Shown here: positions 18,531 through 34,521 of the stretch, in pieces | How positions within the stretch are numbered: the stretch's first letter is position 1 | Layout of the letters: every line of letters begins with the position of its first letter | Assembly: GCA_016716605.1 (NCBI GenBank) | Contig: JADJWA010000002.1 | Coordinates: forward strand, 88,031-152,030 | Source of the DNA: Flavobacteriales bacterium | GTDB lineage: Bacteria > Bacteroidota > Bacteroidia > Flavobacteriales_F > PHOS-HE28 | Reading direction: 5' to 3' | Length of the DNA stretch: 64,000 bases | Translations under genes and position numbers: made by a program | The notes under the pieces: model-generated | Told to the model about the DNA's origin: nothing | Databases searched by the model: none | The model's input: the letters and a program-made list of their open reading frames with translations, nothing else

Positions 18531-19073
18531 TTCGAGCGCGTGCGTCGCTTTGCCCGCCCGTGATGGCGCGTCCCTCGCATTGCATGAGCAAGGCGGTCCG
18601 TGGGCACAGGGCAGCCCATGCCGTGCGCGATCGCGATCTTGGCGGGTATGAAGTCCACGAGGCACGAGGCATGAGCAGGCCGACCGCGACGCACGGCGAC
18701 ATGCGCTGAAGAATGACATCTTCAGAAAAAGGCCATGAGCACCGGAGCCACCCCATCTGCCGCGGACAAGCCTGGCGTCCGCGACAGCGGTGAATGGCTT
18801 TAACTCAAGGGCCCCAAGAGGCATCCAGCGGCATCCCTCTCCGCTTCACCCGCAACAGACTGTCCCGTGCGGCATGCAAGGCCTCTTCTTCGGTGGCGCC
18901 TCGTCCCGGTCGGTTCTGGAAGGGTTCATGCCGGTTGGTTGAAGGTCGGGATCATCAGGCAGCTGGCACAGCCATCCCGAGCGTTTCACAAGGCACCTGA
19001 CCAGGGGGAGTTTACAAGCCCGCAGCCCGAACACGCAAAGACCCTAACCTTGAATGCGCTCAACACCGCCACG

Positions 19074-19685
19074 ATGAACAGGATAGGGCTCTACCAGAAC
19101 ATCTCCGTAAGCATCACCCTCGCCACCGTGCTCAGCGTGCTGGCCAAGCTGGCCATGCAGCATCACGAGAGTGGCCATACCTGGTTCGAAACCGGAGTGA
19201 GTGCATCGTCCCTCTATGTGATCCTGATGGGCGTGTTCATGATCTTCTTCCGGGGCAAGATGATGCACGACGATGATGAATTCTTTGCTTCCGTCGACCG
19301 TGGGGATTTCAAGGCTTCGGCGAAAGCAAAGCGCACCCTGAAGGCGGGCTTGATCCTGGGCTATATCTCCTGGCTCTGCTGGGCCCCCGCTATCTACTTC
19401 CTGGAGGACCCGTATGTCATGAGCTGGTGCATGCTCGCCGCCTTGGTGGCCAGCACAGCGTGGCTAATAACCGATATCCTGTCTCGGAAACCCGCCAAGG
19501 ACGACACACCTGAAGCCATGAAACGTTGGTGGTGGGTGGCGGTGAACCTGGGCTATGCCGCACCCTTGGTCTGCATGCTGCTCCACCTCGAATCAGCGCC
19601 TTACATGGCGGCAGTGCTCCTCGCACTGCTCATCCTCGATTGGCTCTTCCTCGATTCATTGCTGCCCGGCCCTGCGGCCGACTAG
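19074..19685 (+). CDS. Hypothetical integral membrane protein
   Basis: Trimmed to MNRIGLYQNISVSITLATVLSVLA... Four predicted TM helices. Confidence 0.55.
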   Translation: MNRIGLYQNISVSITLATVLSVLAKLAMQHHESGHTWFETGVSASSLYVILMGVFMIFFRGKMMHDDDEFFASVDRGDFKASAKAKRTLKAGLILGYISWLCWAPAIYFLEDPYVMSWCMLAALVASTAWLITDILSRKPAKDDTPEAMKRWWWVAVNLGYAAPLVCMLLHLESAPYMAAVLLALLILDWLFLDSLLPGPAAD

Positions 19686-19715: not shown

Positions 19716-19755
19716 CCTCCCGCAGGCTCTCCCGACCTCGGGGACCCTGCGCTGC
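19716..19755. repeat. REP-like palindromic element (CCGCAGG...GGGACCCTGCG family)
   Basis: CCTCCCGCAGGCTCTCCCGACCTCGGGGACCCTGCGCTGC. Confidence 0.6.
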
Positions 19756-20058: not shown

Positions 20059-20919
20059 ATGCGCAAGCTGCCCATCGCACTCCTCCTTTTGTCGCTGACC
20101 ACGAACGCGCAGAATGTGATCCACCCGTTGTGGGGATCGATCTTCGCAGATGGTCAATTCAGTGCCGGTGAATGGGACCAGGCCCCAACGGTGGACGTGC
20201 CAGCAGGCGGCGGCGACCTGAGCCAGGTCGCCTTCGCAGTGGATGGATGGGGCTTGTTCCTTGGTTTCATGGGCCATCTGGAGAGCAACCAGCTGTTCCC
20301 GGAAGTGCTGTTGGACATCGATCACGATCGCACACCGGCTTGGAGCGGCGATGATCGCTGGTACCATGTCTCAGCGACCAGTTGCCACCACCAAGGAGCC
20401 TATGGGGTGTACGACGATTGTTCGCCCCTGCCGAACAACTGGTCGGCCCATCCGAACATCAGCCCAGGTCCGCCCATGACCGATATGGTGGAGATCGCCA
20501 TTCCCTGGTGGTACCTCCTGGGGATAACCCCGCAGCCCGGCGATACCATCGGCATCGCGGTGGTGCTCACCAACACGGCCACCAGTTGGAACATGTGGCC
20601 GGCCGGTGCGTCGCGGCTGGCTCCCTCTTCCTGGGGTCACCTTGTCTTCCCCGGTGCGTCCGCTATCGCGGAAGGTCCTTCCCTCCGCGATGTGACCGTC
20701 TGGCCCAACCCGGTGGTTGATCGGCTCGCCATCGAAACGCGAGCGCAAGGACCGATGGACATCACCCTGTTCGATGCGCAAGGCCGCACGGTGCATCACC
20801 AGAGGTCGGTCGGCACGGGCTCGCCGCGGATCCGCATGGACCATGTGCAAGCGGGCACCTACCTCCTGCGCCTGCAGAACGGTGCCGACACCTGCGTGAA
20901 ACTGGTGCAGAAGCTCTAA
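20059..20919 (+). CDS. Secreted protein with T9SS C-terminal sorting domain
   Basis: Signal peptide MRKLPIALLLLSLTTNAQ. C-terminus VTVWPNPVVDRLAIE...GTYLLRLQNGADTCVKLVQKL. Confidence 0.75.
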   Translation: MRKLPIALLLLSLTTNAQNVIHPLWGSIFADGQFSAGEWDQAPTVDVPAGGGDLSQVAFAVDGWGLFLGFMGHLESNQLFPEVLLDIDHDRTPAWSGDDRWYHVSATSCHHQGAYGVYDDCSPLPNNWSAHPNISPGPPMTDMVEIAIPWWYLLGITPQPGDTIGIAVVLTNTATSWNMWPAGASRLAPSSWGHLVFPGASAIAEGPSLRDVTVWPNPVVDRLAIETRAQGPMDITLFDAQGRTVHHQRSVGTGSPRIRMDHVQAGTYLLRLQNGADTCVKLVQKL

Positions 20920-21091
20920 CACCGGGCCTCCGCATCACAGCCGAACCATCCCCCGCACTGGCGCGGGAGTCTCGGCCCGCGCAGATTCTCCCGTCTTCTG
21001 GGCCTTGCGTGCCATGGCCCCGGATTGCCAGCGCGCTCCGGGCAGGGTACGCAAGGCCCGGTGCCTTGCTTAGGTTTGAACACAGCGAGGC

Positions 21092-22105
21092 ATGGCATAC
21101 GGTAGGATCACGGCAACGGTCTTGTTCGCGGGCTTGCTTGCGCCCAACGCGCAAGCGCAAGACCACGGCAGCACCATTTACGCGCGCGTGAGCGGCGCGG
21201 TGGCCTGGGTGGAGAGCATAAGCACGGATAGCCTGCACCGGTACCGGGGCAGCGGTGTGGTGCTGAAGGACCAGGGCCTGCTGGTGACCAATTTCCATGT
21301 GTACAAGAGCGGTGGCACGCTTACCGCGCGGCTTGGCAACACGCCGCTGCACTTGGGCAACATCCTTTGTGCGGACAAGGCGCGCGATGTGCTGGTGGTG
21401 AATGTGCTGGGCACCACGCCGAAGGCGGCATGGGATGCGGTGCCCGCACTGCCCATCGTATACAGCCATGCGCTGCGCCCGGGCATGGACGCCTATGCGT
21501 TGGGCAATCCGCGCGGTGTGGAACTCACCATCAGCTACGGTCTGGTGAGCGGCCTGCGACCGAACAGGCAGGACACCGCGCAGAAGCTCATCCAGTTCAG
21601 CGCACCGGTGAGCGAAGGCAACAGTGGTGGCGCGCTGGTGGATGCGCGCGGCGCGCTCATCGGCATACCCACGGTGTGGTTCAGCGATGGTGGCGGGCAG
21701 GCCCTCAATTTCGCCATACCCATGGAGCGCGTGGAGGATGCAACCGTGGAAGCACGCAACGACCTGCCCGCGCCCGATGCCCGCTGGCTGCGCACCTGGC
21801 GGCGCTGGCGCATGGGCGAGTGCGCCACCGTGCTGGATACGCTGGGCCTGATCGCGGCGGAGAACGGCCCCAACAGCATCACCGCCTTTTACCTGATGGC
21901 GCGTTGCATCCAGCGCAGCGGCGACCTGAAGACCGCGCGCACCGCTTACGAGAGCCTACTGGCCAGCGACCCCACGCATGCTTACGCCACCTGGCGCTTG
22001 GGCGAAGTGCTCCACGCAGCAGGTGACAAGCTGGCCGGCATGGAACAGCACGTGCGCGCCGTGCGGCTGGATGACAACCTGCGCGAGGGACCACCGCCCT
22101 ATTAG
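21092..22105 (+). CDS. Trypsin-like serine protease (S1C/HtrA-like) with C-terminal TPR-like region
   Basis: Signal peptide. Catalytic Ser motif GNSGGALVD. His/Asp region TNFHV / DVLVV. TPR-like helical tail. Confidence 0.85.
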   Translation: MAYGRITATVLFAGLLAPNAQAQDHGSTIYARVSGAVAWVESISTDSLHRYRGSGVVLKDQGLLVTNFHVYKSGGTLTARLGNTPLHLGNILCADKARDVLVVNVLGTTPKAAWDAVPALPIVYSHALRPGMDAYALGNPRGVELTISYGLVSGLRPNRQDTAQKLIQFSAPVSEGNSGGALVDARGALIGIPTVWFSDGGGQALNFAIPMERVEDATVEARNDLPAPDARWLRTWRRWRMGECATVLDTLGLIAAENGPNSITAFYLMARCIQRSGDLKTARTAYESLLASDPTHAYATWRLGEVLHAAGDKLAGMEQHVRAVRLDDNLREGPPPY

Positions 22106-22131
22106 AGGGCATCTCAAAATACTAGGCCGCA

Positions 22132-22265
22132 GCAGGGTCTTCGACAACCTGCGCTTGCACCCAGTGACAACTATCCTGGTGCATGGTACCCAGCGCCCCC
22201 CACCGCCTCTACCTTCAACACCTACCGCCTGCCAAAGGCAGAATGCTTCGCGGATACGAAGCAGG
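22132..22265 (+). repeat. About 140-nt intergenic repeat family B, copy 1
   Basis: Begins CAGGGTCTTCG. Contains the core CTACCTTCAACACCTACCGCCTGCCAAAGGCAG(A/G)(A/C)TGCTTCGCGGATA with hairpin CCTGCC-aaag-GGCAGG. Confidence 0.7.
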
Positions 22266-22332
22266 GCCTAATGCTGCACGATACCCAACTCATGGCAAAA
22301 GGCCACGGAGCCACACGCAGCCGCGAGGCGGA

Positions 22333-23139
22333 TCAATGCTGAAGCACCAGCAAGGGCACACTGGCATGCATCGCCAGGTGCTTTGCCACGCTACCGTGGA
22401 AGAGAGACTCCAGGAAACCCACGTGCCGATGGAGCACCGCTACCAGGTCCATATTCTCTCGTTCGGCCACCTCGCTCAAGGCCAGTGCTACATCATTCCC
22501 TTCCACGGAGGTGAACATGTGTGCGACCCCTGCAAAGGTCTCTTCGTAGTCTGCCATTACCCGTGCATCCGGTACATCGGTCTCCTTGCGCACAACATGC
22601 GCAATGGTGATGCTCGCGGTTGAACGGCGTGCCAGTTGCACCAGCGGGCGCAGAGCGAACGGCTCCACGCGCACATGGTCGTCGGCCAGCAGGACATGCC
22701 GCAAGCCCTTGTAGCTGGCCTCTTTGGGTACGATGAGCACCGGAACGAGACTGGTTCTTGCCACGGCGCTAGCACTACTACCGAACACTGCGCTCCCCGC
22801 AGCCCCTTGCGTGCCCATAACGATCATGTCCACGCCGCTCTCCTCACACACAGACCGGAGACTTGAGGTGAGCACCCCATAGATGGCCTGCGTGTTCACG
22901 ACTACATGGGTTCCCCCCTTCGATTTCCGCAAGCGCTCGGTGAAGTGTGCCAGGCCCTCCACAGCAGCGGCATACTGCGCACTGCTCATATCTACCATCG
23001 CCGCATAGCCTGGTAAAGGGTCCAGATAGGTATGCACCAAGGTGTAAGCAGTGCTGTCGCTGCCGAACAGCTCGAATGCATACGCACATGCATTCAATGA
23101 TCCTTCGCTGAAGTCGGTAGGAAGCAGGATATGCATCAT
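22333..23139 (-). CDS. Universal stress protein (tandem UspA domains)
   Basis: Two repeats of the Usp fold (MMHILLPTDFSEGS...; HVLLADDHV...VAKHLAMHASVPLLVL). Confidence 0.9.
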   Translation of the reverse strand: MMHILLPTDFSEGSLNACAYAFELFGSDSTAYTLVHTYLDPLPGYAAMVDMSSAQYAAAVEGLAHFTERLRKSKGGTHVVVNTQAIYGVLTSSLRSVCEESGVDMIVMGTQGAAGSAVFGSSASAVARTSLVPVLIVPKEASYKGLRHVLLADDHVRVEPFALRPLVQLARRSTASITIAHVVRKETDVPDARVMADYEETFAGVAHMFTSVEGNDVALALSEVAERENMDLVAVLHRHVGFLESLFHGSVAKHLAMHASVPLLVLQH

Positions 23140-23163
23140 GGCAGTGTGCTGTTCGTTACGGAG

Positions 23164-23799
23164 CTACTTGGTCGGGTGGCCTTGGTCGATGACCGATGTC
23201 AACGTGCGCCGATCACCCAGGTTAAGTCGTACATCCGCGATGCCCTTGACCAGTGCGGCGATCCACTTCGCGCGCTTGGCAGGATCGGCATACCTCATCC
23301 TATCCAAGCGCGTCACCTTCACGGGGCTTATCCCGCAGAAGTCGAGAACGGCACGCTTCACGGTGTTGAGGTCGCTGTTGCGGTACTGCCACCAGGCCCA
23401 GATCGCAGGGGCATCGCATGTGGTGATGATGTGGGCCGAGCGGCCTTTGAGCAGCTTGTCCCAGAAGGGGTCGTTGGTGTGGTAGTGGTAGGCAAAGCCC
23501 TCGTACAAGGTGCGGTCCAGAAAGCCCTTGAACAGTGCGGGCACGGAACCCCACCACATGGGATAAACGATGACCCAGTGCTGGCACCACAGGATGCTCT
23601 GTTGCGCTTGCACCAGGTCCGGCTCCAATTCCTGGATCACCTTGTGTCCCTTCCAAAGAATGGGGTCGAAGTGCATGTCGCCCAGCCGTTGGATCCGTAC
23701 TTCGTGTCCCTTGGCGCGGGCACCTTCGAAATAGGCATCGGCCAAGTGGCCATTGAAGCTGTCCTTGTCAGGATGGGCGAGCAGGACGTAGATGCGCAT
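23164..23799 (-). CDS. NAD(P)H-dependent quinone oxidoreductase, flavodoxin-like fold
   Basis: MRIYVLLAHPDKDSFNGHLADAYFEGA is typical of NQO/MdaB-like FMN reductases. Confidence 0.85.
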   Translation of the reverse strand: MRIYVLLAHPDKDSFNGHLADAYFEGARAKGHEVRIQRLGDMHFDPILWKGHKVIQELEPDLVQAQQSILWCQHWVIVYPMWWGSVPALFKGFLDRTLYEGFAYHYHTNDPFWDKLLKGRSAHIITTCDAPAIWAWWQYRNSDLNTVKRAVLDFCGISPVKVTRLDRMRYADPAKRAKWIAALVKGIADVRLNLGDRRTLTSVIDQGHPTK

Positions 23800-23870
23800 G
23801 CGCGAAGTTCCTGTCAGGTGGCGCTGTGGCGCATGAGGTGCGTCAGTTGAGCGCGTGTTGCGGTTGTTCC

Positions 23871-24887
23871 TTACACCAGTGCCTCTTCCAGAGCGGTTGG
23901 CTCAGCTGCCACGCGTTCAGGCAACCACGCATCGAACCAACGTGCGATGAGCGTCGTGAACGGAAGGAAGAGCAATACCCCGAGCATGTTGAAGAGCATG
24001 TGCGCATTGGCGATGCTGCGGGCCACATCGGCGTTGCCGCTGATCCACACCACCAGCGCGGTGAAGGGATGCACCAGCAGGATGCCGATCATGATGCTGA
24101 CGAGGTTGAAACCAAGGTGGAAGAGGCCCACCTTGATCGCTTGGCGGCGACAGCGTACGGTGGCCAGGAGCGTATCCGAGCAGGTACCCAGTTCGGCGCC
24201 GAGCATTACGGCGATACCGGCCGGAAGGGAGAGGATACCCTTCGTTGCCAGCGTGATCGCCATGGCCACGGTGGCACTTGAGCTCTGAATGACCAGGGTG
24301 ATGAGCCCACCAACCGCGGCGCCCTTGAGCGGATGTTCCAGACCATGCAGCCATGCGATGAACCGTGGATGTTCCTTCAACGGTTCCACCGCGTAGCCCA
24401 TGAGGAATAGGCCGGTGAAGAGAAGGCCGAAGGCGAAGATGGCCGCACCGATCCGTTTCCAGTTCGCTCCCCTTCCGAAGTGCTCAAGCACCAGGCCCAG
24501 GAGCAATGGTACCGCGCTCCACTCCCCGATATCGAATGCGATGATCTGGCTGCTGAGCGTGGTACCGATGTTCGCACCCATCACCACACCGAGCGCATTG
24601 CGGAAAGTCATCATGCCGCTGTTCACCAGCACGATGGTGAGGATGATCACCGCCGAGGAACTGTCCAGCAACATGGTGACCACGGTTCCAACGAGCAATG
24701 CACTGAGCACGTGCGTGGTGTAGCGCTTCAGCCAGGCATGGAGTACGCCACCGGCCATGCTTTCCAATGTCCCGCTGAGGCGGTCCACGGCGTGCAGGAA
24801 AACCGCCAGGCCAGTGAGCACCAGCAACACGATGCGCAGCAAATGCACCTCACCGCCGACTTCCATGCACCAAAGCACAGCGCCCAA
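23871..24887 (-). CDS. Na+/phosphate cotransporter family (NptA-like) membrane protein
   Basis: Repeated Na/Pi-cotransporter signatures (LLDSSSAVIILTIVL; LVIQSSSATVAMAITL). Multi-TM. Confidence 0.85.
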   Translation of the reverse strand: MGAVLWCMEVGGEVHLLRIVLLVLTGLAVFLHAVDRLSGTLESMAGGVLHAWLKRYTTHVLSALLVGTVVTMLLDSSSAVIILTIVLVNSGMMTFRNALGVVMGANIGTTLSSQIIAFDIGEWSAVPLLLGLVLEHFGRGANWKRIGAAIFAFGLLFTGLFLMGYAVEPLKEHPRFIAWLHGLEHPLKGAAVGGLITLVIQSSSATVAMAITLATKGILSLPAGIAVMLGAELGTCSDTLLATVRCRRQAIKVGLFHLGFNLVSIMIGILLVHPFTALVVWISGNADVARSIANAHMLFNMLGVLLFLPFTTLIARWFDAWLPERVAAEPTALEEALV

Positions 24888-24945
24888 GGTTCGCTGTGCG
24901 TTAAATGCCCCATGATAATTGTCAACGTTGGAAGCGCGGCGATTT

Positions 24946-25093
24946 GAACACGCGCAGGGTCTTCCGCTAGCGCTCCGCAGGGTGCCTTGCCATTTCTAGT
25001 TTTGAGCAGCCCCGCGACCCCACCATCGCCCCGTCCTTCAACACCTACCGCCTGCCAACCGCACGCTGCTTCGCGGATAAGAGCAGGTGATAG
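24946..25093 (+). repeat. Repeat family B, copy 2 (left flank of 2-TM gene)
   Basis: GAACACGCGCAGGGTCTTCCGC...CCTTCAACACCTACCGCCTGCCAA...GCTGCTTCGCGGATAAGAGCAGGTGATAG. Confidence 0.7.
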
Positions 25094-25191
25094 ACCCCAA
25101 CTGCGCGCAGGCCCGCCGGTGGTGGTATCCAACAACGTGCCCTCGACAGGGCCTTCGTGCCGCGCCGGCGTGTTGGTGAAGGCGGCAGCGG

Positions 25192-25719
25192 CTACTGCGG
25201 GATCATCAGGTTCCACACCAACAGGACGAACCAGAGGCCCAAGGCCAGAATGAGGAGTTGGCCGGCTTGCCGCATATAGCGGTGCTTGGCATGGGCGATG
25301 CGGGCGCTGATGTGCACCTGATGCAGCAGCCCGGGCAAGGGGTCCTCGTTCTCGGAGGCCAGGAAACGCTCCTGGAATTCCGCCTGGCCCATGGAAGCGA
25401 TGTCGCCGAAGAACGTAATGCCCGGCTGGCCGGTGCGCTTGGTGCGGGGCAGCAGGGCCACCATGGCCAAGAGGATGGAGCAGACCGTGGCCAGCAGCAT
25501 GAGGATGGTGCCGGTAACGGCCAGCTCGCCCCAAGGTGAGGGCAAGGCGCGCAGGCGCACCTGGCTGGTGAAGGTGAGCGCCGCGGCCAGCAGCGTGTTG
25601 GCACCGAAGAGGGCCCGGATCTTCTCATCGGCCGCACGGATATGCAGGCCGATGCGTTCCAGGGTCCGTTCCGCCTGGCGTACCTCTTCAGACCGGCCAG
25701 TAGGGGCGCTTGTGATCAT
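25192..25719 (-). CDS. Small 2-TM hypothetical protein (SLATT/effector-like), flanked by direct copies of a 140-nt repeat
   Basis: Trimmed to MITSAPTGRSEEV... A soluble N-terminal helix, two TM helices (TLLAAALTFTSQVRL; LAVTGTILMLLATVCSILLAMVALL) and a C-terminal TM. Confidence 0.55.
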   Translation of the reverse strand: MITSAPTGRSEEVRQAERTLERIGLHIRAADEKIRALFGANTLLAAALTFTSQVRLRALPSPWGELAVTGTILMLLATVCSILLAMVALLPRTKRTGQPGITFFGDIASMGQAEFQERFLASENEDPLPGLLHQVHISARIAHAKHRYMRQAGQLLILALGLWFVLLVWNLMIPQ

Positions 25720-25820
25720 CGCGCAAGTGTAGCGGGGCGCTTCGCTGGCCAGGTTTCTGGTATGTGTCCACCGATCTAACAGTACAATACGGCGTGCTGC
25801 GGCACCGGCTGCGTTGCCTT

Positions 25821-25952
25821 CAAACACGCGCAGGGTCTCCCGCATCCCGTGGCCTTGCGAGGGACGGTGGCCCTGGCTCAATCATGGCCTCTACCTTCAA
25901 CACCTACCGCCCGCCAAAGGCAGGCTGCTTCGCGGATAGGAGAAGGTGATGG
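25821..25952 (+). repeat. Repeat family B, copy 3 (right flank of 2-TM gene)
   Basis: CAAACACGCGCAGGGTCTCCCGC...CTACCTTCAACACCTACCGCCCGCCAAAGGCAGGCTGCTTCGCGGATAGGAGAAGGTGATGG. Same orientation as copy 2. Confidence 0.7.
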
Positions 25953-25963
25953 TCCTGGCTGAG

Positions 25964-26000
25964 TCGCAGGGTCTTGAAGCCGAAGCCCCTGCGGAGGTCT
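25964..26000. repeat. REP-like palindromic element adjoining repeat B copy 3
   Basis: GTCGCAGGGTCTTGAAGCCGAAGCCCCTGCGGAGGTC. Confidence 0.5.
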
Positions 26001-26164
26001 AAAGGAGAGCTGGCCCAAGGTGCGCGACTGGAAGACCTTCAACGCGTGGTTCAGCTACCACGTGGGCAGCATGGCGTGGGACTTGATGCCGGAGCTGCCA
26101 CTGGAGCATGACGATGACTGAAGGCCAAGCTGAAGGTGATCGTGAAGCTACCCTGCGCCTTCGG

Positions 26165-26725
26165 CTACGAACGTTGATGCCGGTAATACGCCAGGAAGCC
26201 CAGTCCGATCCCGGCTAGTGCGAGCGCATAGCCCAGTGCGACCGAAACGAAGGAGGCCCGGGCGCTGATGCAGAACAGCACCAGGCCGCCGCACCAGAGC
26301 AGCAGGTGCGGCGTGCGGACCGGATGCGCGGCCGGGAAGGGCCTGCCCAGAAGCGGTGCGAAGCGCGCGCGGTCCAGGTACAGCAGGGCGAGGTTCATCA
26401 GGAAGAAGAAGCCCAGGACATAGGGTGTGCCGCGCCAGTGAAGGCTGATGGTGACGGCAATCATGTTCACGAGCATGGGCACCAGCATTACGGCGCCGAG
26501 GGTGCGCAGCAGGAGCGTGAAGAGCAGGAAACCGATCACCGCCTCGCTGTACGCAATGAACACCGCATAGGTCCCGAGGCCGTACTCGGCAAGTTCCTCC
26601 TCCAGCCATACCGGACCCATCACGCCCGGAAAAGCGTGCTGCGCGAACACTTTGCTCATGCCGCCCCCGATGAAGAGAACGCCGAGCCCAAGGCTCAAGG
26701 CATGGCCAAGGCGACGCTGCCACAT
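26165..26725 (-). CDS. DoxX-like multi-TM membrane protein
   Basis: 186 aa and hydrophobic throughout. The real start is possibly the internal MSKVFAQ. Confidence 0.6.
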   Translation of the reverse strand: MWQRRLGHALSLGLGVLFIGGGMSKVFAQHAFPGVMGPVWLEEELAEYGLGTYAVFIAYSEAVIGFLLFTLLLRTLGAVMLVPMLVNMIAVTISLHWRGTPYVLGFFFLMNLALLYLDRARFAPLLGRPFPAAHPVRTPHLLLWCGGLVLFCISARASFVSVALGYALALAGIGLGFLAYYRHQRS

Positions 26726-26770
26726 GCCACAAGATCGGCTTTTGTGCGGTAATGCCTTCGCAGGCCGTCA

Positions 26771-26866
26771 CGCAGTGGACCCTGAACCTCCGGGGGTCTC
26801 CCGCAGGGGACCCTGCGCGCCCACCGAACCGCAGGGTCCCCTCCTTCGTCGGGAGACCCTGCGGAG
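26771..26866. repeat. REP-like palindromic elements, tandem pair
   Basis: GGGGGTCTCCCGCAGGGGACCCTGCGCGC followed by CCGCAGGGTCCCCTCCTTCGTCGGGAGACCCTGCGGAGG. Inverted repeats form long hairpins. Confidence 0.65.
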
Positions 26867-27135
26867 GTAAGAGGTCACGGCGGGAGGAACCGTGAACAGC
26901 GAACTAGGCCTGGACCACTGCTACAGCCACCCGGACATTGATTGAAAGACCATTGCATTGGCGTTGGTGGTGGCCGAGTGAAGTGGTGGATGAGTCCTTT
27001 GGCGCAAGTCGTTGTCTTCGCAAACAACCTGTCAGATTGAGTCCAGGTGAGATCCAGGTTAACCTTCATCACTTCGACGCGTCGGCAGTTGATGTTCCGG
27101 GCCAACACGCCTAGCTTCGATGCGAACCCCATCCT

Positions 27136-28134
27136 ATGCACATGGAACGGATCACCACACTGGCGCTCTTCGTCGCCGCGATCGCCGCAACGGACCTCAA
27201 CGCGCAAACCAGCGGTAAGATGGATTTCACCCCCGGCGACCGGGTGATCTTCTTCGACAGCCTGAAGAACGAGCAGGTCGGTGAATTCCCCTCCAAGTGG
27301 GACCTGGTGAAGGGCTCGATGGAAGTGACCGAGTTCGAAGGCGCACCGGCCATCGCATGGGCGAGCAACCAGGCGGCGATCAAGCCTTTGATGAAGAGCG
27401 CGAGCTATCTGCCCGAATGGTTCACGCTGGAGTTCGAAGCCTACTTCCACTACAAGGGCAACGAAGGTTATTACCTGAAGCTGCAAGGGACACCGGCCAT
27501 TGAGATCCGGGTGAACATCGATTACATCCAATACAAGGGAGAGAACAGCAGCCGCTCTCAGAAGACCGGACACACGCCCGGCTGGCGTGAAGTGGCGCTC
27601 TCCTTCAACAAGCGCGCGCTCAAGATCTACCTGAACGGCGAGCGGCTGGTGAACGTGCCCAACGTGACCGAGCAGCCCAAGTGGATGGAGATAAACGCGC
27701 TGAACCACAGCGGGCCGCAGGGCTTCCCCGCCATGATCCGCAACGTGCGCCTGGCCGAAGGCGGCATGCCGCTTTACGACCGCTTGATCACCGATGGGCG
27801 CTTCGCCACGTATGGGATCACCTTCGACGTGAACAAGACGGAGATCAAGCCCGCAAGCCAACCGGTGCTCGATGAGATCGCCGCCATGCTGAAGGCACAT
27901 CCCGAGCTGCGCGTTTCCGTTGAAGGGCACACTGATGGCGATGGCGCCGACGATGCCAACATGAAGCTCTCGCAGGGCCGGGCCGCTGCGGTGAAGGCGG
28001 AGCTGGTGAAGGCCGGTGTCGCCGCCGATCGCCTCGAAGCAAGGGGCTGGGGTGAAACGAAACCCGTGGCCGGCAACGACACCCCCGAGGACAAGGCGCG
28101 CAACCGGCGCGTTGAAGTGGTGCAGTTGAAGTGA
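27136..28134 (+). CDS. OmpA-family protein
   Basis: Signal peptide. C-terminal OmpA domain (GITFDVNKTEIKP...VEGHTDGDGADDANMKLSQGRAAAVKAELV...NRRVEV). Confidence 0.85.
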   Translation: MHMERITTLALFVAAIAATDLNAQTSGKMDFTPGDRVIFFDSLKNEQVGEFPSKWDLVKGSMEVTEFEGAPAIAWASNQAAIKPLMKSASYLPEWFTLEFEAYFHYKGNEGYYLKLQGTPAIEIRVNIDYIQYKGENSSRSQKTGHTPGWREVALSFNKRALKIYLNGERLVNVPNVTEQPKWMEINALNHSGPQGFPAMIRNVRLAEGGMPLYDRLITDGRFATYGITFDVNKTEIKPASQPVLDEIAAMLKAHPELRVSVEGHTDGDGADDANMKLSQGRAAAVKAELVKAGVAADRLEARGWGETKPVAGNDTPEDKARNRRVEVVQLK

Positions 28135-28260
28135 GAACTTCGTCGTGGCTGGCGCTCCGCTACCGCTCCTTCACCCACCGCGCCGCCCGAGGGAATACCC
28201 CATCGCCATCAAGGACAACGGTGTAAAGGCCAGGCACCAAGCCAGCGACGTCGATTACTG

Positions 28261-28298
28261 CCTCCGCAGGCCCTCACGCAGTGGACCCTGCGGTCCCA
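28261..28298. repeat. REP-like palindromic element
   Basis: CCTCCGCAGGCCCTCACGCAGTGGACCCTGCGGTCCCAGG. Confidence 0.55.
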
Positions 28299-28546
28299 GG
28301 CCAACCGCCACCCTGCTGCCGCGAGTTTGCAACTCGTGGCTACACGCAATTGGAATATTCGAACCGCAGCAGCGCCTCCCGTCCACGGAATCCTATGCCG
28401 CGCTGTGTGCCAGCCGCAACTGCATGCGGCCGAAGGTGCAAGCACGCGCGTCGACGGACCTGATCCATGAAGCTGGACCGCCCGCCCGGCCTTCCTCGCC
28501 TTCTCGGTACTTTTCCGCACCTTCGGTCATCCCACCCTACCCTGCC

Positions 28547-29533
28547 ATGCGCACCATTCTCATCCTGTTCGCCACTGCCGCTGCGCTCAGCGCGCACGCC
28601 ACCATCCACCGCGTGAACAACACCGGCATCGCGGTGCCCTTCACCACCTTGCAGGCCGCGCACGATGCGGCGGCCAATGGCGATACCCTCCATGTGGAGC
28701 CCAGCGGCAGCAGCTATGGTGCATGCACCTTCATCAAGCCCTTGGTGGTCATCGGGCCGGGCTACTTCCTGAATTTCAACACCGGCCTTCAGGCCACGGC
28801 GGCCACGGCCATCACCGGCGGGTTGGTCTTTCAGGCGGGGAGCGAAGGTGCCGTGGTGAGCGGCCTGGACGTGCAGGGCGCCACAAGCGTGCGGGCGAGC
28901 TTCGTGCGGATCGAGCGTTGCCGATTCTCGGCTGGCGGGGCGGACCTGTCGATCGCCTATCCGGTGGGCTCACTGGACCTCACCGGCATCGTGGTGAACG
29001 GCTGCCACGTGGCGAATGGCTTCGTGGTGGGCTACAGCGGAACCACCATCAATGATCTGACGATCAGCAACACGATCGCGCGCACGTTCAACTTCGCAAC
29101 GGGGGGCAGCACGTCCGGCGAGTTGATCAACTGCATCGGGCTGGGCAGCGGCACCACCGCGCTCTTCGGCGGCAGCGGCATGTCCATCAGCAACTGCGTA
29201 TTCGGGCCCTTCGTCACGCCGGGCACCTCGGCCTATGCGAACAACATCTTCGCCGCGGACCCCGTGCCGGCCACCAATGGCAACCAGATCAACGTGGACC
29301 TGAGCACCGTGTTCGTGGGCGGCACGGGCGATGCGCAATACCAGCTCGCCGCTGCATCGCCCGGCATCGGTGCCGGCACCGGAGGAGCGGATTGCGGCAT
29401 CTTCGGCGGCATCGAGCCCTACCGGCTCAGCGGCATTCCGCCGGTGCCCAGCATCTTCACGCTGAGCGCGCCCACCAGCACGGACCAGGGAACACCGCTG
29501 CAGGTCACCATCAGTTCACGCGCCAACGACTGA
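28547..29533 (+). CDS. Secreted parallel beta-helix repeat protein
   Basis: Trimmed to MRTILILFATAAALSAHA (signal peptide). Gly/Ser/Thr-rich repeats are consistent with a right-handed beta-helix. Confidence 0.6.
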   Translation: MRTILILFATAAALSAHATIHRVNNTGIAVPFTTLQAAHDAAANGDTLHVEPSGSSYGACTFIKPLVVIGPGYFLNFNTGLQATAATAITGGLVFQAGSEGAVVSGLDVQGATSVRASFVRIERCRFSAGGADLSIAYPVGSLDLTGIVVNGCHVANGFVVGYSGTTINDLTISNTIARTFNFATGGSTSGELINCIGLGSGTTALFGGSGMSISNCVFGPFVTPGTSAYANNIFAADPVPATNGNQINVDLSTVFVGGTGDAQYQLAAASPGIGAGTGGADCGIFGGIEPYRLSGIPPVPSIFTLSAPTSTDQGTPLQVTISSRAND

Positions 29534-29537
29534 GGCC

Positions 29538-30296
29538 ATGGCACGCCTGCTATCCTTCCTTGTGGCTGCGGCTACTGCGGTCACGGCTGCGTCCGCGCAA
29601 GAGCTCCAGCGCGGCGAGTACTATTTCGATGTGGATCCCGGCTTCGGCAATGGCACGGCCATCACCTTCACGCAGGCCGCGGAAGTGTCGCTGCCCCTGT
29701 CGCTCGATGTGAGCGCACTGGCACCGGGCGGGCATGTGCTCGGGGTGCGCATGATGGATGATGCCGGCCACTGGGGCCTCACCAGCCGCAGGCTCTTCAT
29801 GGTGCGCAGCATGGCTCCCGGTGGCGACATCGTGCGCGTGGAGTACTTCCTCGATGTGGATCCGGGCTTCGGCAATGCCACTGCGATGGCCACAGCCGCA
29901 GCTCCAGAGATCAATGGCCTGCTGCTGAATGTGCTCACCGACGCGCTCGCGGCCGGTCCGCATACGCTCTCGGTGCGTTCGCTGTCCTCCACCGGCGCAT
30001 GGTCGCTCACGAACTCCATCACATTCGATGTATTCGTGGGCATCGAGGAGCTGGAGCGGCTGGGCATCGCGGCCGGGCCGAATCCGATGGCGGATGAACT
30101 GGTGCTTCGGCGCACATCCAGCGGAGCTCGCGTCGCTGTGGACTTGCTGGATGCCCAAGGCCGGTTGCTGCGCAGTGAACTTTGGTCGAGCGATCGCCTT
30201 GTCCTTTCGACCGGCGATCTGTCCGCAGGAAGCTACCTGCTGCTGCTGCGGATGGAGGGGAGGGATCCCCTTGTGCTGAAGCTGGTGAAGCCCTGA
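29538..30296 (+). CDS. Secreted protein with internal EYYFDVDPGFGN repeats and T9SS C-terminal sorting domain
   Basis: Signal peptide. Two copies of GEYYFDVDPGFGNGTA / VEYFLDVDPGFGNATA. C-terminus LSAGSYLLLLRMEGRDPLVLKLVKP. Confidence 0.75.
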   Translation: MARLLSFLVAAATAVTAASAQELQRGEYYFDVDPGFGNGTAITFTQAAEVSLPLSLDVSALAPGGHVLGVRMMDDAGHWGLTSRRLFMVRSMAPGGDIVRVEYFLDVDPGFGNATAMATAAAPEINGLLLNVLTDALAAGPHTLSVRSLSSTGAWSLTNSITFDVFVGIEELERLGIAAGPNPMADELVLRRTSSGARVAVDLLDAQGRLLRSELWSSDRLVLSTGDLSAGSYLLLLRMEGRDPLVLKLVKP

Positions 30297-30300
30297 GAGC

Positions 30301-30345
30301 GTTAGCCTCCGCAGGGACTCCCGACGCAGGAGGGGACCCTGCGGC
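30301..30345. repeat. REP-like palindromic element
   Basis: GTTAGCCTCCGCAGGGACTCCCGACGCAGGAGGGGACCCTGCGGCAC. Confidence 0.6.
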
Positions 30346-30588
30346 ACTGTAAGCGCCCACTCCAGGGTTCCCTACGAGATACTTTGCGGAGGCGTGAACG
30401 AGCCGGGCTGATGCTGGCGCACACCAGAGTCTATCTCAAGAAATGATTCTAGCAGCGAGCGAGAGCTAATCCGCGACCAGGCAAGGCACGGGAACCGAGC
30501 ATGGCCTATAGCTCATTGAAGCTTTCCGCAACGCCGCATGGGAGCGGAAGACCCTCGCGCAGCCCAAAGGGTATTCGTGCGACAGCCT

Positions 30589-31035
30589 CTAGGTCAGCTG
30601 CAATCTCATGCTGATTGTGTCCCCACACCGGGATTCTTCCTTGAACCCGGCTTTCTGGTAGAGTTTCAGCGCCGGGGCATTCGACGCATCCACCGCGAGC
30701 GCGACGAACGCCCCCGTGTACGCGAAAGTGCGTCGGCCGAAATCGATCCCTTGCTGAAGCAGGTCCATGCCATGGCCCCTGCCGACCAGGGCCGGATGCA
30801 ACGCCATGCCGATCCACATGACCTGTTCCACGAAAGTGAACTCGAACAAGCCGACCAATGCGCGCTCATGGCATACGGCGAACCCGGTGCAGCCACCCGG
30901 ACCTTTCAGCGCACCCATGCCGTCCTGCGCGGTGAAGTAGGGGTCCATGAACAACTGCTTCTCGTGCCCGGTGTACCGCCATGTCGCGATCTCCCTGGCT
31001 TGCGCGACCGTGATCGGATGGAAGTCGAGGATCAT
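30589..31035 (-). CDS. GNAT family N-acetyltransferase
   Basis: 148 aa trimmed from the long ORF. Acetyl-CoA binding motif LVGRGHGMDLLQ and a GNAT beta-strand pattern. Confidence 0.8.
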   Translation of the reverse strand: MILDFHPITVAQAREIATWRYTGHEKQLFMDPYFTAQDGMGALKGPGGCTGFAVCHERALVGLFEFTFVEQVMWIGMALHPALVGRGHGMDLLQQGIDFGRRTFAYTGAFVALAVDASNAPALKLYQKAGFKEESRCGDTISMRLQLT

Positions 31036-31192
31036 GCTGTGATGCGGTGCCGCGTACAGGATCACACAATGTACGCCGCAGTGCAGGAGGCGCTCTCCGT
31101 GGCAGGCGGTGCAGGCGCCCGCATTCGCGAGCGAGCGTCCACGCTCGTGCTCTGCCTGCCCTGCACCACCGCCGGGCCTCCTGAGGCATGTG

Positions 31193-31283
31193 GGGAGCCT
31201 GCGGCCATGGCGTACTGCAGGGTCCACTGAGAGTGACCACGCGTGCCCTTCGGCCTTCGAAGGGTCTTCCGTGCTCGGGGACC
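31193..31283. repeat. REP-like palindromic element(s) adjoining repeat B copy 4
   Basis: GGGGAGCCTGCGGCC...CTGCAGGGTCCAC...GGGGACCCTGGGTG. Confidence 0.5.
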
Positions 31284-31400
31284 CTGGGTGCCGTGCTATT
31301 TGAAGATTTGAGCGGCTTGGCGCCCCCCAATCGCCCCAACCTTCGACACCTACCACTGGCCAAAGGCAGGCTGCTTCGCTGACAAAGGAGAAGCTGATCG
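31259..31400 (+). repeat. Repeat family B, copy 4
   Basis: GGGTCTTCCGTGC...CCTTCGACACCTACCACTGGCCAAAGGCAGGCTGCTTCGCTGACAAAGGAGAAGCTGATCG. Confidence 0.65.
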
Positions 31401-31410
31401 TTGAGGGGAG

Positions 31411-31884
31411 GTGACGATCCTCACGCAATGCCCAGACCATTACGCGGACATTCGTGTCCGATATCTCCTCAACATGAGCGGCAGGCACAACATCGCGTTC
31501 GGTTTCCTCTTCATGGGCCTCTTCATGGTCTATGGTTTCCTGCTCATTTACCTGCGCGATTTTTCGCCGGACAAGGAAGCGTGGATCGCGAGCGATGGGA
31601 ACGGCCCGCACTTCGAAGCACGCCTGGCCCATGTGCACGGCAACCTGTTCGCCTTCCTCAACATCGTGATCGGTTTCCTGCTCCTGCGCAGCGCCATGCC
31701 CGCCAAGCAGCACCGCACCATTGCATGGCTGGCGCTCCTGGGCATGTTGATGCCGGTGGGCATCCTGCTGGAGATCTACCTGCATGCCTCGCCCATCTTC
31801 GTGCTCCTCGGCGCCGTGCTCATCGTGCTCGCCGTGGTGCTCTTGGGCCTTTACTTCCTGCGTAACAAAGACCCCCTTTCATGA
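31411..31884 (+). CDS. Hypothetical integral membrane protein
   Basis: Four TM helices. An alternative start is MSGRHNIAFG at 31474. Confidence 0.6.
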   Translation: MTILTQCPDHYADIRVRYLLNMSGRHNIAFGFLFMGLFMVYGFLLIYLRDFSPDKEAWIASDGNGPHFEARLAHVHGNLFAFLNIVIGFLLLRSAMPAKQHRTIAWLALLGMLMPVGILLEIYLHASPIFVLLGAVLIVLAVVLLGLYFLRNKDPLS

Positions 31885-32234
31885 GAACCGTCCTCATTGC
31901 TATTGCCATCACCGCCGCCATGCACACCAACGCCCAAGACCCTGCTGCGCGCCTTGCGGACGCCGCCGCCTACGATGCGGCCAAGTTCCAGAACACCTTG
32001 GTGCTGAACAACGGGAACGCCAAGGCGATGGTGTTCGCGCTGAAAGCAGGTCAGGATGTTCCGCCGCATTCCTCACCTGCGGATGCGCTCTTCACGGTGC
32101 TTGATGGGGAGGCCACCGTGACCATCAAGGACGTGGTGCACCAGGTGGCAGCCGGTGAGTACATCCTGCTACCCATGGGCGTCGATCACCACATCAAAGC
32201 GGCGAGCGATATGAAGTTCATGCTGGTGAAGTAG
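31881..32234 (+). CDS. Cupin-domain protein (secreted)
   Basis: Signal peptide. Conserved cupin His residues (VPPHSS...GEYILLPMGVDHHI). ATGA overlap with the upstream gene. Confidence 0.8.
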   Translation: MRTVLIAIAITAAMHTNAQDPAARLADAAAYDAAKFQNTLVLNNGNAKAMVFALKAGQDVPPHSSPADALFTVLDGEATVTIKDVVHQVAAGEYILLPMGVDHHIKAASDMKFMLVK

Positions 32235-32463
32235 GTCGACCGTGAGGGCTTCTGCGCCCACCACGCGTGTGATCGCGGTCGTGAAGGACCCGCCCCACCG
32301 CGCATGTGCGCCTTAAGCCCGCGCAGGCTCTCCTTTCTTATTGGTCCCGGCGTTCCTTTGGAATAACCCGGAGGCGGATGCCGAAAGAGAAGACCACGGA
32401 TCGCAATTCCGCAGGAGAGGGGGAAGCGGCGGCCCATTGCGCGGTGCGCCTATGCAGCCCCCC

Positions 32464-32835
32464 TCACCCCTTCATCCTTTCCTTCAGCTCCTCTTCGCTC
32501 ACGCTCCATTCCCTGCCGGGCCTGCTGCCCTCGATGCGGTAGAAGAAGCAGCCGCGCTCGAAGCTCCACTTGCGCTGCACGATGCGTCGGCGCACCATGG
32601 GGCCGAGCTGCACATAGGCGCCGGTGCTGAACGCGGCGTGGGCCAGCATGGCGCGCACGATATCGGCCTGGCTCACATTCCAGTGGATCTGCAGCGGCTC
32701 GTTGGGCGGCTTGGCGTGTATGGTGTACACCCAATGAAGCACCGGGTGCGGTGCGCGCCATACGATGGGCCACACGCCCTGTGACCAGGGCACCAGGCCA
32801 TTCACCGGGCAGGGGGTGCTGGGCAGCGACGGCAT
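32464..32835 (-). CDS. Hypothetical protein (weak)
   Basis: Only the C-terminal roughly 120 aa of the 211-aa ORF looks protein-like. No motif recognised. Confidence 0.3.
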   Translation of the reverse strand: MPSLPSTPCPVNGLVPWSQGVWPIVWRAPHPVLHWVYTIHAKPPNEPLQIHWNVSQADIVRAMLAHAAFSTGAYVQLGPMVRRRIVQRKWSFERGCFFYRIEGSRPGREWSVSEEELKERMKG

Positions 32836-33150
32836 TCGCGTCAAAGTCGAGGCCCAGAAAGAACAACGCGGGAGCGGCTGCGCGGCGGCGAGTTTTGAAC
32901 AGCGGGGCGCTGCGCGCAGGTGCGAACGCACATGTGCCAACCGGCTCAAGGACATCTTGACCCGGGACATCGTTGACACGAACATCGTGTTCAGTTGCGT
33001 GGTGGGTTGCAGGCTCTTCTGAGGGCGTTGGTGCGGATCGTGGAAGCGGTGATCCGTGGCAACCAGCCAGGCCTCTGTGCAACGGATCGGTGATCCCAAG
33101 GCGCTCTAACGGCTCTCGTTCTGAGCATGCCCGCCCGATACCTTTGTTGC

Positions 33151-33480
33151 ATGCTTGCCGATCTGATCAATGGCCACCGCCAGCAGTTCATAAGCCTGTG
33201 CCGCGCACACAAGGTGAAAGAACTCTATGCCTTCGGCTCGGCGGTGGATGGACCTTTCCGCGACGACAGCGACGTGGACCTGCTGGTGGAGGTGCAAGGC
33301 GGCGATCCAGTGGAGACCGGCGAACGGCTCTGGTCCTTCTGGGACAGCATGGAAGTGTTCTTCCACCGCAAGGTGGACCTGCTCACACCCTCCTCCTTGC
33401 AGAACCCGGTGAAGAAGCGCGCCATCGACCGTTCCAAGCAACTCATCTACGATGGAGCGACTGGAAGGCTGCTATGCTGA
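33151..33480 (+). CDS. Nucleotidyltransferase-domain antitoxin (MntA-like, type VII TA)
   Basis: Minimal nucleotidyltransferase motif GSAVDGPFRDDSDVDLLVEV. Confidence 0.8.
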   Translation: MLADLINGHRQQFISLCRAHKVKELYAFGSAVDGPFRDDSDVDLLVEVQGGDPVETGERLWSFWDSMEVFFHRKVDLLTPSSLQNPVKKRAIDRSKQLIYDGATGRLLC

Positions 33481-33790
33481 CATCCTGCGGGCGGTCAAGC
33501 TGATCGAGGCCTTCCTGGCACAAGGCCGGATCGATGGGTTCGAGGCATACACCAAGCACGCGATGGTGAAGAGCGCGGTGGAACGGCAGCTGGGCATCAT
33601 CGGCGAAGCAGTGAACCAGATCCGTAAGCTGGATCCTGTGCATCCGATACCGGAGGCCGATCGCATTGTCCAGTTCCGGAACCGGCTCATCCATTCCTAC
33701 GACAGCATCGACGACCAATTCGTCTGGCCGATCCTCCAGAAGCATATCCCCGAGCTGAAGAGGATCGTGCTGCGCCGCACAAGCAGTTGA
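33452..33790 (+). CDS. HepT-like (HEPN/DUF86) toxin
   Basis: Overlaps the MNT gene by 29 nt. HEPN Rx4-6H motif RNRLIHSYD. Confidence 0.8.
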   Translation: MERLEGCYADILRAVKLIEAFLAQGRIDGFEAYTKHAMVKSAVERQLGIIGEAVNQIRKLDPVHPIPEADRIVQFRNRLIHSYDSIDDQFVWPILQKHIPELKRIVLRRTSS

Positions 33791-34074
33791 TCGCGGAAAT
33801 GGCCTTGTCTGATACAGCAGTAGGTCACCATCCACCGCTCGCGCATTCGTCGATTCGGCTCGGCATTCTAAGCCTCAGCAGGCATTCCGGCGAGCGCCAT
33901 CTCTAGGAGGAACCTCCGCAGTGTGACTCGTCCTGAAATGGGTCTGCGCAAAACAGCGACCCGTGGAAGGCAAGTTCAAGCACAACAAGAACGGCAACTT
34001 CGGATCGCGGTTCCACAGGAGCAGGACAAGTAGCTGCGGGCAGAAGGAAGCGTTTCGGGAGCCCTAAGCAGGCA

Positions 34075-34521
34075 TCACTTCAGCCACGCCCTATTCCTGC
34101 GGAAATACACCAGGAAGCCCGCCGGGATGAAGCAGTAGAAGAACAGCAGCACCGCCATGAAGGACAGATACACGGTCATGAGCCAAAGCAGCATGACGCA
34201 CACCGTGGCGAGGAGGTGCACGATGTTCGATGCCACGTAGATGCGGAGGCCGAGCCGCCTGCCCAGCAGCATGAAGGCGGCGCCGATCGCGGCCCCTGCG
34301 CAGGAGAGGATCACGGCCAGCATCAGGATCTGGAGGGGCACCACGGCGCCGGTGCCCACGCCCCCGTTCTCGATGCCCGTGTACAGCATGCCGGCCTTGA
34401 ACAGGTTGGTGACGATGAGGAAGATGTTGCCCAGGATGGTGAGCAAGCAGAGCACCGTGAACAGGCGGGGGGCTTGAGGGGGCACGGGATCGAACGTACG
34501 GCGATGCGGTTCCATGGCCAC
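34075..34521 (-). CDS. Hypothetical integral membrane protein
   Basis: 148 aa with four TM helices. Confidence 0.55.
   Translation of the reverse strand: MAMEPHRRTFDPVPPQAPRLFTVLCLLTILGNIFLIVTNLFKAGMLYTGIENGGVGTGAVVPLQILMLAVILSCAGAAIGAAFMLLGRRLGLRIYVASNIVHLLATVCVMLLWLMTVYLSFMAVLLFFYCFIPAGFLVYFRRNRAWLK

Follow-up and report, generated by a model that had tools for sequence, protein, structure and literature searches.

Why should a sequence of roughly 140 nt recur four times, always in the same orientation, between the genes of one short stretch of bacterial DNA? The question is raised by 64,000 nt from an uncultured, high-GC Flavobacteriales lineage of activated sludge and wastewater (GenBank assembly GCA_016716605.1, contig JADJWA010000002.1, positions 88,031 to 152,030 of the forward strand), a stretch that is called the window below in its full length. 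The answer that we favor, with moderate confidence, is that the four repeats serve as junctions in an "additive" island, cassette-like and variable between strains, situated between a trypsin/TPR gene and a DUF423-like gene. Much of what distinguishes strains of environmental bacteria lies in flexible islands, and for most of these it is unknown how blocks of genes enter and leave, especially outside the Proteobacteria and in uncultured lineages.

Repeat copies and the strain-variable island

A preliminary description of the window had recognized four same-strand intergenic copies with a conserved 3' module, a conserved 5' end and a variable middle, and all of these features are borne out. An nhmmer profile built from the four copies has exactly four matches in the 64 kb, each on the + strand and with E values from 3e-31 to 5e-40, at about 22128-22270 (copy 1), 24950-25095 (copy 2), 25826-25955 (copy 3), and 31256-31400 (copy 4); a fifth copy, even a partial one, of the 3' module is not detected by the profile search anywhere in the 64 kb. 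A 21-nt core with three mismatches or fewer is matched three times, against an expectation of 0.00. In pairwise comparison among the four copies the 58-nt 3' module is 75-87% identical and the 16-nt 5' motif 62-81% identical, and the middle of the element lies at the identity level of shuffled sequence, save for copy 2 against copy 4 (69%). Three copies have a middle of 58-59 nt and a distance of 79-80 nt from 5' motif to module; for copy 3 the two figures are 42 nt and 63 nt.

Followed in the direction of the two flanking genes, the element has three parts: a GC-rich hairpin, a C-rich and G-poor linker, and a conserved, unstructured module that measures 60-100 nt. The hairpin, of which the 5' motif is the start, opens with GCAGGGTCT, usually follows the stop codon of the preceding gene and may act as the terminator of that gene. 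It belongs to a wider local motif family, visible in the motif GCAGGGTCY, which occurs 12 times against 1.8 expected, always between 19.7 and 32 kb and on both strands. The module has the core CTGCTTCGCGGATAGGAGAAGGTGAT, with TTCAACACCTRCCGCC before it. One claim of the preliminary description held only in part: the CCTGCC/GGCAGG hairpin attributed to the module is perfect in the consensus, but it shortens to 5 bp in copy 1, is interrupted in copies 3 and 4, and is absent from copy 2, and the differences between copies are not compensatory.

The evidence that carries the favored reading comes from sister strains. The comparison takes in three strains, with 1.9 kb available for one. A homologue of the DUF423-like protein (99% identity by BLASTP, 98.5% by tblastn) is found at the locus L152, which lies in the metagenome-assembled genome (MAG) GCA_016705545.1 on contig JADIYA010000011.1, and in L153 and L154, both wastewater contigs from ENA. 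L152 matches the window in four blocks that keep the same order, namely window positions 20206-22143 (97.5% identity), 28311-30303 (92.5%; block B hereafter), 31342-32953 (94%), and 34070-36288 (92.5%). Between these blocks the DNA of L152 is unrelated to that of the window and encodes different proteins. The flanks of the island are thus conserved, with the trypsin/TPR gene on the left and the DUF423-like gene and a cupin gene on the right (94-97.5%), and the repeats of L152 are found only inside the variable stretch, as full or partial elements at 5216-5304, 8477-8619, 9313-9378 and 9799-9930 and as a copy of the 5' hairpin only, at 1923-1964, directly past the trypsin/TPR stop codon. L153 has repeats at 75-156 and 578-709, and every copy in L152 and L153 is oriented as in the window. 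Positions 9804-9928 of L152 correspond to window 25829-25953, in copy 3, with 83% identity.

On the left side of the island, conservation ends at 22143/22144, inside the 5' motif of copy 1 and immediately after GCAGCAGGGTCTTCG. The first ~16 nt of copy 1 (GCAGCAGGGTCTTCG) are therefore conserved between strains and the remainder is strain-specific, which makes this copy the left border of the variable island. On the right, the border is the 3' end of the module of copy 4, where ...GGAGAAGCTGAT (also given as ...GGAGAAGSTGAT) is followed by CGTTGAG and strain-conserved DNA resumes; between strains, identity is ~80% in the module there and rises to 96% in the 150 nt that follow. The shared block within the island is bounded in a similar way. 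The left end of block B (28310/28311) follows a degenerate element in both the window and L152. In the window this element spans 28255-28312 on the + strand and consists of a family hairpin at 28262-28292 (CCGCAGGCCC...GACCCTGCGG), a C-rich stretch, and ACCCTGCTGCC, which resembles the start of the module; L152 has a truncated module, TTCAACCCCCTGCTGCC, at the same place. The right end of block B (30303/30304) precedes a family hairpin in both strains, which in the window lies on the minus strand at 30306-30346, 10 nt past the stop codon of a gene with a type IX secretion system (T9SS) sorting tail. Further, L153 is without 2.9 kb that L152 has between two copies of the module. The breakpoints between conserved and variable DNA thus fall in or beside elements, and copies 1 and 4 are the borders of the island. 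All 10 known copies lie inside this one island, with 0 in the other 55 kb of the window and 0 in the other 8.6 kb of L152.

The copies are also related to one another in a mosaic fashion. The 5' half of copy 2 is of a subtype (A) that it has in common with copy 4, and its middle too is like that of copy 4, while its 5' flank is like that of copy 3. The 5' half of copy 3 is of a second subtype (B), common to elements e3 and e5 of L152 and f2 of L153, and resembles that of e5. Such mosaic relationships, with subtypes that cross strain lines, imply exchange between copies. It might be supposed instead that local segmental duplications left the repeats behind as inert remnants without any role, and their divergence and their clustering within 9.3 kb would suit that explanation. 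Neutral decay would be uniform along the element, however, and here a well-conserved module stands beside a middle at chance level with the spacing kept; moreover, the same repeat family sits between different genes in the sister strains. Inert duplication is accordingly scarcely credible, and the combination of conserved ends, non-homologous middle and retained spacing fits recombination sites better than it fits uniformly decaying duplicates.

Proposed recombination at the repeats and competing explanations

As an additive island, the locus would grow when a DNA segment carrying one element recombined with a resident element, Campbell-style, so that the new genes end up with a direct copy on either side. 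Successive events of this kind would build an array of same-orientation copies, and recombination between two copies would delete or swap a block. The exchange might be site-specific and mediated by a recombinase encoded elsewhere, or it might be RecA-dependent and proceed between homologies of 60-140 nt. A model of this kind explains why the copies all point one way and keep to the island, why copies 1 and 4 stand at its borders, why conserved ends go with a middle that is free to vary, why the copies are mosaics, and why L152 and L153 differ by the presence or absence of DNA between copies. It also bears on the preliminary description, which had listed a cassette-like unit among several options; that option gains support from blocks that differ between sister strains and from breakpoints that coincide with elements. 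In the same direction, relatives whose PycTM or Na/Pi cotransporter proteins are 86-87% identical to those of the island are without the element, and homology in the promoter regions ends ~20 nt short of it.

Several observations weigh against this reading. No integrase, transposase or other recombinase domain was found among the ~50 proteins of the window or the Pfam matches of L152, and sequence searches of the unannotated proteins against Pfam, NCBIfam, PADLOC, and PDB recover no recombinase either (one of these proteins, of 422 aa, has a signal peptide). The crossover points vary, falling in the 5' motif, inside the module, or at the 3' end of the module, and since there is no fixed crossover base, homologous or illegitimate recombination fits better than a precise site-specific reaction. 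Genes number from one to five per block, are found on both strands, and have promoters of their own, unlike integron cassettes. The comparison takes in just three strains, with 1.9 kb for one of them, and the census of copies spans 64 kb of a source contig of 413 kb, so that a family dispersed genome-wide is possible. Finally, flexible islands can differ between strains without any involvement of local repeats.

An unlikely alternative is that the element is a selfish, non-autonomous repeat (a MITE, or miniature inverted-repeat transposable element; a REP/BIME; or a PATE-like derivative of IS200/IS605) that is mobilized in trans and piles up in a permissive and fast-evolving island, its position at junctions being a by-product. 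It occupies intergenic DNA and joins a GC-rich hairpin and conserved ends to a middle that varies, and single-strand (HUH) transposition is known for uniform orientation. It is also restricted to its lineage, with no true match in species-representative genomes, in two metagenome scans or in the viral contigs examined. Among 185,579 species, each represented by one genome, a degenerate core pattern has only two matches, both by chance and in coding DNA. A strict pattern has 0 matches in 241 million metagenome records, and a loose pattern has at least 120, all 120 listed covering the pattern alone. Viral contigs hold no match to the core patterns; with the loose pattern, 13 matches cover the pattern alone and three further matches fall outside this tally. 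Similarly, no copy is present at orthologous sites in relatives at 79-87% identity, nor anywhere at the relatives' loci that encode 66-87% identical Na/Pi or 67-86% identical PycTM proteins. A promoter-proximal stretch of 45-65 nt is conserved in these relatives for both the Na/Pi and the PycTM gene, and upstream of the Na/Pi gene homology to the relative L014 ends ~20 nt from copy 2. Related MAGs have different palindromic repeats, also in a single orientation, near PycTM and toxin-antitoxin genes.

Against mobility of this sort stands the anatomy of the element. The preliminary description had considered a MITE, a reading that in the strict sense is not supported. In 4/4 copies, local alignment of the 5' end with the reverse-complemented 3' end gives no more than the shuffle level, which leaves no terminal inverted repeats; target-site duplications are lacking, as the flanks of the copies share no duplicated bases, and there is no conserved target tetranucleotide. 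No transposase or RAYT gene (Y1 HUH transposase) was found in the window or in L152, the 3' hairpin is not conserved, and all 10 copies occupy one island. A Xer/dif-like or tyrosine-recombinase core was likewise considered, with the arms CCGCCTG and CAGGCTG around CCAAAGG, and was rejected because the would-be overlap varies between copies.

The position of the hairpins behind genes invites another interpretation, that each element is a transcription-unit boundary carried along with its block, as in the terminator and promoter borders of phage morons; the hairpin would terminate the upstream gene, the module would serve as promoter or leader of the downstream + strand gene, and recombination would be secondary. 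Family hairpins do lie 10-35 nt past the stop codons of several genes, and a + strand gene begins 70-225 nt downstream of five of the nine modules. Linker and module together are C-rich and G-poor, in the top 0.1-2% of 50-nt windows, like regions before start codons here, and TGCTTCGC, which is similar to the local -7-like box TAnnTTCG, precedes an ATG or GTG by 24 nt. The module, however, is without the T-A of the -7 box, and a -33 TTG with the proper spacing is missing. Copies 1, 2, and e3 are each directed at the 3' end of a convergent gene, the DUF423-like gene has a -7-like box of its own that is nearer its start and within the conserved flank, and the motif is missing from all other terminators and promoters of the window. 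The short open reading frames (ORFs) past the module are not conserved; in L152 the peptide that follows the ATG of element e2 (MDLLAGDD.ERGG) was rejected as coding, its frame having a GC content at third codon positions (GC3) of 0.60 against ~0.8 in genes. Nor did promoter motifs hold across copies: sigma-70, Bacteroidota -33/-7, sigma-54, and ECF motifs, sought by eye and in two scans, were inconsistent, a generic promoter scan gave one match against 2.4 expected, and of the elements only copy 2 contains, once, the -7-like box TAnn[TC]T[TC]G of this DNA. A boundary function of this kind is distinctly unlikely as the primary explanation.

The same box occurs elsewhere in the window, 12-37 nt before six start codons (for example at 4238, 20035, 21071, 25731 on the minus strand, 27112, and 60530), and several other starts are preceded by 50 nt of markedly C-rich, G-poor sequence. 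Box and C-rich leaders together look like high-GC Bacteroidota promoters with short unstructured leaders.

What, then, is conserved in the module? The preliminary description had offered a family of structured small RNAs with a terminator-like hairpin, and a related explanation would make the elements sibling small RNAs or cis-acting RNA leaders that act through the sequence or structure of the module. The elements are intergenic, multi-copy and in a single orientation, as such RNAs might be, a conserved stretch of 47-60 nt adjoins stable hairpins, and on the minus strand three copies of the window occupy the 3' untranslated regions of minus-strand genes. The structural evidence runs the other way. 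Over the whole window Rfam gives 0 matches at the gathering threshold, and at E<=10 the sole overlap is CC0196, with 16.7 bits against a threshold of 35 and an E value of 7.6. Folds of single sequences, for the element and for the module, have non-significant z-scores from -2.2 to +0.8 and differ by copy; as DNA, the module folds no better than its shuffles. Consensus folding with RNAalifold gives -8 and -15 kcal/mol for the two strands with a covariation term of ~0. A nested palindrome of the module, examined over ten sequences, is 75.1% paired against 75.9% for shuffled partners, and a weak signal in its 6-bp central hairpin was traced to one poorly aligned sequence. Pairing of the 5' end with the 3' end is not consistent in eight copies on either strand, whether by minimum free energy or by pair probabilities. 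One candidate, the pairing of the 5' motif TCTYCCGC with GCGG-ATA-RGAG in the module, differs between copies 2 and 3 at one pair (T-A versus C-G) and was dropped because it is not predicted thermodynamically. Without a shared fold or covariation the structured-RNA option loses its footing, and the absence of an Rfam family, of a promoter or U-tract terminator common to the copies, of consistent gene contexts, and of the element upstream of orthologous genes in relatives makes any small RNA or leader very improbable. Given that the copies have neither a common fold nor covariation, the module is conserved as sequence, not as structure.

Nor is the core a fragment of a coding gene, a finding that the preliminary description had named as grounds for abandoning its view. 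In six frames and four copies, indels break the frame between modules and there are no common start codons, and substitutions are spread equally over codon positions 1, 2, and 3, with no third-position bias. The open frames that the copies do contain read TFNTYRLPKAGCFAD on the + strand and IREAACLWxAVGVEGRG on the minus strand. A replication-terminus site was also considered and rejected, as the cumulative GC skew does not switch in the window.

The additive-island reading has practical consequences. A short, recognizable sequence marks the borders of island blocks in three close wastewater-plant strains, and a profile of the element could be used to find further copies, to delimit cassettes, to seek excised circles or rearrangements, and to look for recombinases that occur along with it. 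Should there be a dedicated enzyme, the locus would represent a new type of integron-like system in the Bacteroidota; if none does, it would be a clear case of cassette shuffling driven by short homology.

Gene map and neighboring features

Genes were placed by codon-position GC and Pfam. The GC content of the window is ~62-63%, and that of the island is 0.60-0.66 against 0.63 for the window. From left to right, the trypsin/TPR gene (21092-22105, + strand) is followed 23 nt past its stop codon by copy 1. The block between copies 1 and 2 (22271-24949), which is not in L152, holds three minus-strand genes, for a universal stress protein (Usp; 22333-23139), a flavodoxin-like oxidoreductase (23164-23799), and the Na/Pi cotransporter (23871-24866). 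Copy 2 lies between the stop codon of the PycTM gene and the promoter region of the Na/Pi gene, and copy 3 lies upstream of the PycTM promoter region. These two copies had been described as bracketing a small gene for a protein with two transmembrane segments, which is confirmed: the gene (25192-25719, minus strand) encodes a PycTM / 2TM effector domain (Pfam 3.4e-18; PADLOC 9e-27) and, with its own conserved promoter region, is alone in its block (25096-25825), which L152 also lacks. It is an orphan, with no cyclase gene adjoining, and its homologues in related MAGs (67-86% identity) are stand-alone as well, the one in the contig L013 coming after DoxX-like genes.

Alignment with L152 delimits three further blocks. 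A strain-specific block at 25956-28310 contains a minus-strand gene for a MauE/DoxX-like membrane protein (26165-26725), a + strand gene for an OmpA-family protein (27136-28134), and a possible 34-aa ORF on the + strand at 26020-26124, 70 nt past copy 3. This ORF, VRDWKTFNAWFSYHVGSMAWDLMPELPLEHDDD, has codon-position GC values like those of genes (0.54, 0.40, and 0.89) and may be a real small gene. Block B (28311-30303, + strand), situated between variable segments, carries the two genes held in common with L152 at 92.5% (28547-30296), the second being the one with the T9SS sorting tail. Another strain-specific block, at 30304-31255, has a minus-strand GNAT acetyltransferase gene (30589-31035); a + strand ORF at 30538-31230 beside copy 4 is spurious, the GNAT gene being the real one. 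Copy 4 lies between the divergent GNAT and DUF423-like genes, and the latter (31477-31884), which encodes a membrane protein, and the cupin gene (31881-32234), both on the + strand, complete the map.

Hairpins of the same type as that of the 5' module also occur solo, on both strands, in neighboring spacers. One, at 19719-19752 (+), lies 34 nt past the stop codon of the gene at 18867-19685, and another, at 25962-25995 (+), is directly 3' of copy 3. Two adjacent family hairpins span 26795-26866, and the second (26826-26866) is near-identical to the reverse complement of the hairpin at 30306-30346 that borders block B. A copy of the 5' motif, GCGAGGGTCTTCCGC, is found on the minus strand at 30538-30565, 30 nt past the GNAT stop codon. 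Farther right, a solo 22-nt match on the + strand at 33924-33945, TGACTCGTCCTGAAATGGGTCT, corresponds to the 5' flank and start of the L152 element e3. It sits in a second strain-variable segment, to the right of the cupin gene, where window 32954-34069 stands against L152 11479-12350. In that segment the window has an MNT/HEPN pair (33127-33790) and L152 an antitoxin with a PIN toxin; a remnant of 34 nt in the window (32970-33003) matches the beginning of the PIN gene of L152 at every base.

Other observations concern the material more than the island. The ENA contig of L154 starts with Nextera adapter sequence at 1-44 (AGATGTGTATAAGAGACAG), which marks that contig end as an assembly artefact. 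Elsewhere in the window, a + strand gene at 4275-6608 encodes a 777-aa protein with an nSTAND1 NTPase domain and leucine-rich repeats, as in candidate defence and signaling proteins, and a repeat finder returned two 122-nt direct repeats with 71% identity at 9281-9402 and 10023-10144.

Relation to known systems

Among dispersed bacterial repeats, the REP is described as an imperfect palindrome of 20-40 nt with a GTAG or CGTC tag at one end that travels with a RAYT gene (PMC3733652). The REP/REPIN and BIME families of proteobacteria and the BOX elements of pneumococci resemble the present element in being modular, intergenic and lineage-specific and in joining GC-rich palindromes to other motifs. 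Those families, however, have tens to hundreds of copies scattered about in either orientation, whereas here there is one island and one orientation. The 5' hairpins are themselves GC-rich palindromes, of 25-50 nt, in which no GTAG was seen and CGTC occurs only in the loops of two hairpins, away from the stem end. PATE elements derived from IS200/IS605 have subterminal hairpins at either end and a conserved target of 4-5 nt on the 5' side of the left end; here the 5' hairpin is present and a 3' hairpin is not conserved, and the left flanks differ between copies (GCCGCAG, ACACGCG, CCTTCGA).

Another comparison is with rAID-1 of the Bacteroidales, an accessory-gene array whose repetitive intergenic sequences its authors call reminiscent of integrons and which is defined by a 5' XerD-like recombinase, two or more co-directional genes, and a GC content below that of the host (Ross et al., bioRxiv 10.1101/471110). 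The island is likewise an accessory-gene array of the Bacteroidota with repetitive intergenic sequences. It differs in that no recombinase was found, gene orientation is mixed, and GC is 0.60-0.66 against 0.63 for the window.

Additive islands linked to tRNA genes and the tycheposon arrays of marine cyanobacteria arise by tandem integration at one att site. They too carry direct repeats in the same orientation between cargo modules, and in them as here the outermost copies adjoin conserved genes and the content depends on the strain. In contrast to those islands, the window has no tRNA or tmRNA (ARAGORN) and no integrase remnant, and the repeat is a whole intergenic unit of 105-155 nt, not the 3' end of a gene.

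There is a further likeness to integron arrays and to CALINs, the clusters of attC sites without an integrase. In both cases sites of ~60-145 nt lie in the same orientation, with conserved ends and a variable center, and accessory blocks lie between them; the content differs between close strains, the type of site is lineage-specific, and the cargo includes toxin-antitoxin genes, acetyltransferases, cupins, and small membrane proteins. Other features differ. The elements lack the inverted core sites of attC (RYYYAAC at the 5' end, GTTRRRY at the 3' end): a CTTCAAC in mid-element is without a GTTRRRY partner, and GTTGAGG is found only at copy 4, downstream in the conserved flank. The element strand does not form the long imperfect hairpin of attC, in which both ends pair. 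A complete integron has the tyrosine recombinase intI and an attI site beside its array; neither intI nor any other recombinase was found in the window or in L152, an absence that CALINs share. Integron cassettes are mostly single, promoterless and co-oriented ORFs, and their crossovers use one fixed base, unlike the multi-gene, two-stranded blocks and scattered crossovers seen here. On these grounds the element is not filed under integrons, rAID-1, or tandem att-site islands, as the features that define each of them were looked for and are lacking.

Repeats of comparable placement occur in two related Flavobacteriales contigs. They are intergenic, 43-65 nt long and built as nested palindromes, unrelated to the present element in sequence and each in a single orientation: in L012 those at 733-785 and 1983-2035 bracket a PycTM and a nucleotidyltransferase gene, and in L013 those at 1873-1915, 4749-4791, and 5559-5601 enclose a PIN toxin-antitoxin pair. 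These repeats suggest cassette borders of the same kind whose sequences are particular to each lineage.

Tentatively, and as an outcome that would surprise us somewhat, the elements of the island could belong to a previously undescribed Flavobacteriales platform for gene capture, of which L012 and L013 would have sister systems with sites of their own. Such a platform would be integron-like in its same-orientation sites with strain-variable content between them, and would depart from the integron in its sites, of ~140 nt and with no relation to attC, in accepting blocks of several genes that bring their own promoters, and in relying on a recombinase that is encoded elsewhere or belongs to an unrecognized family.

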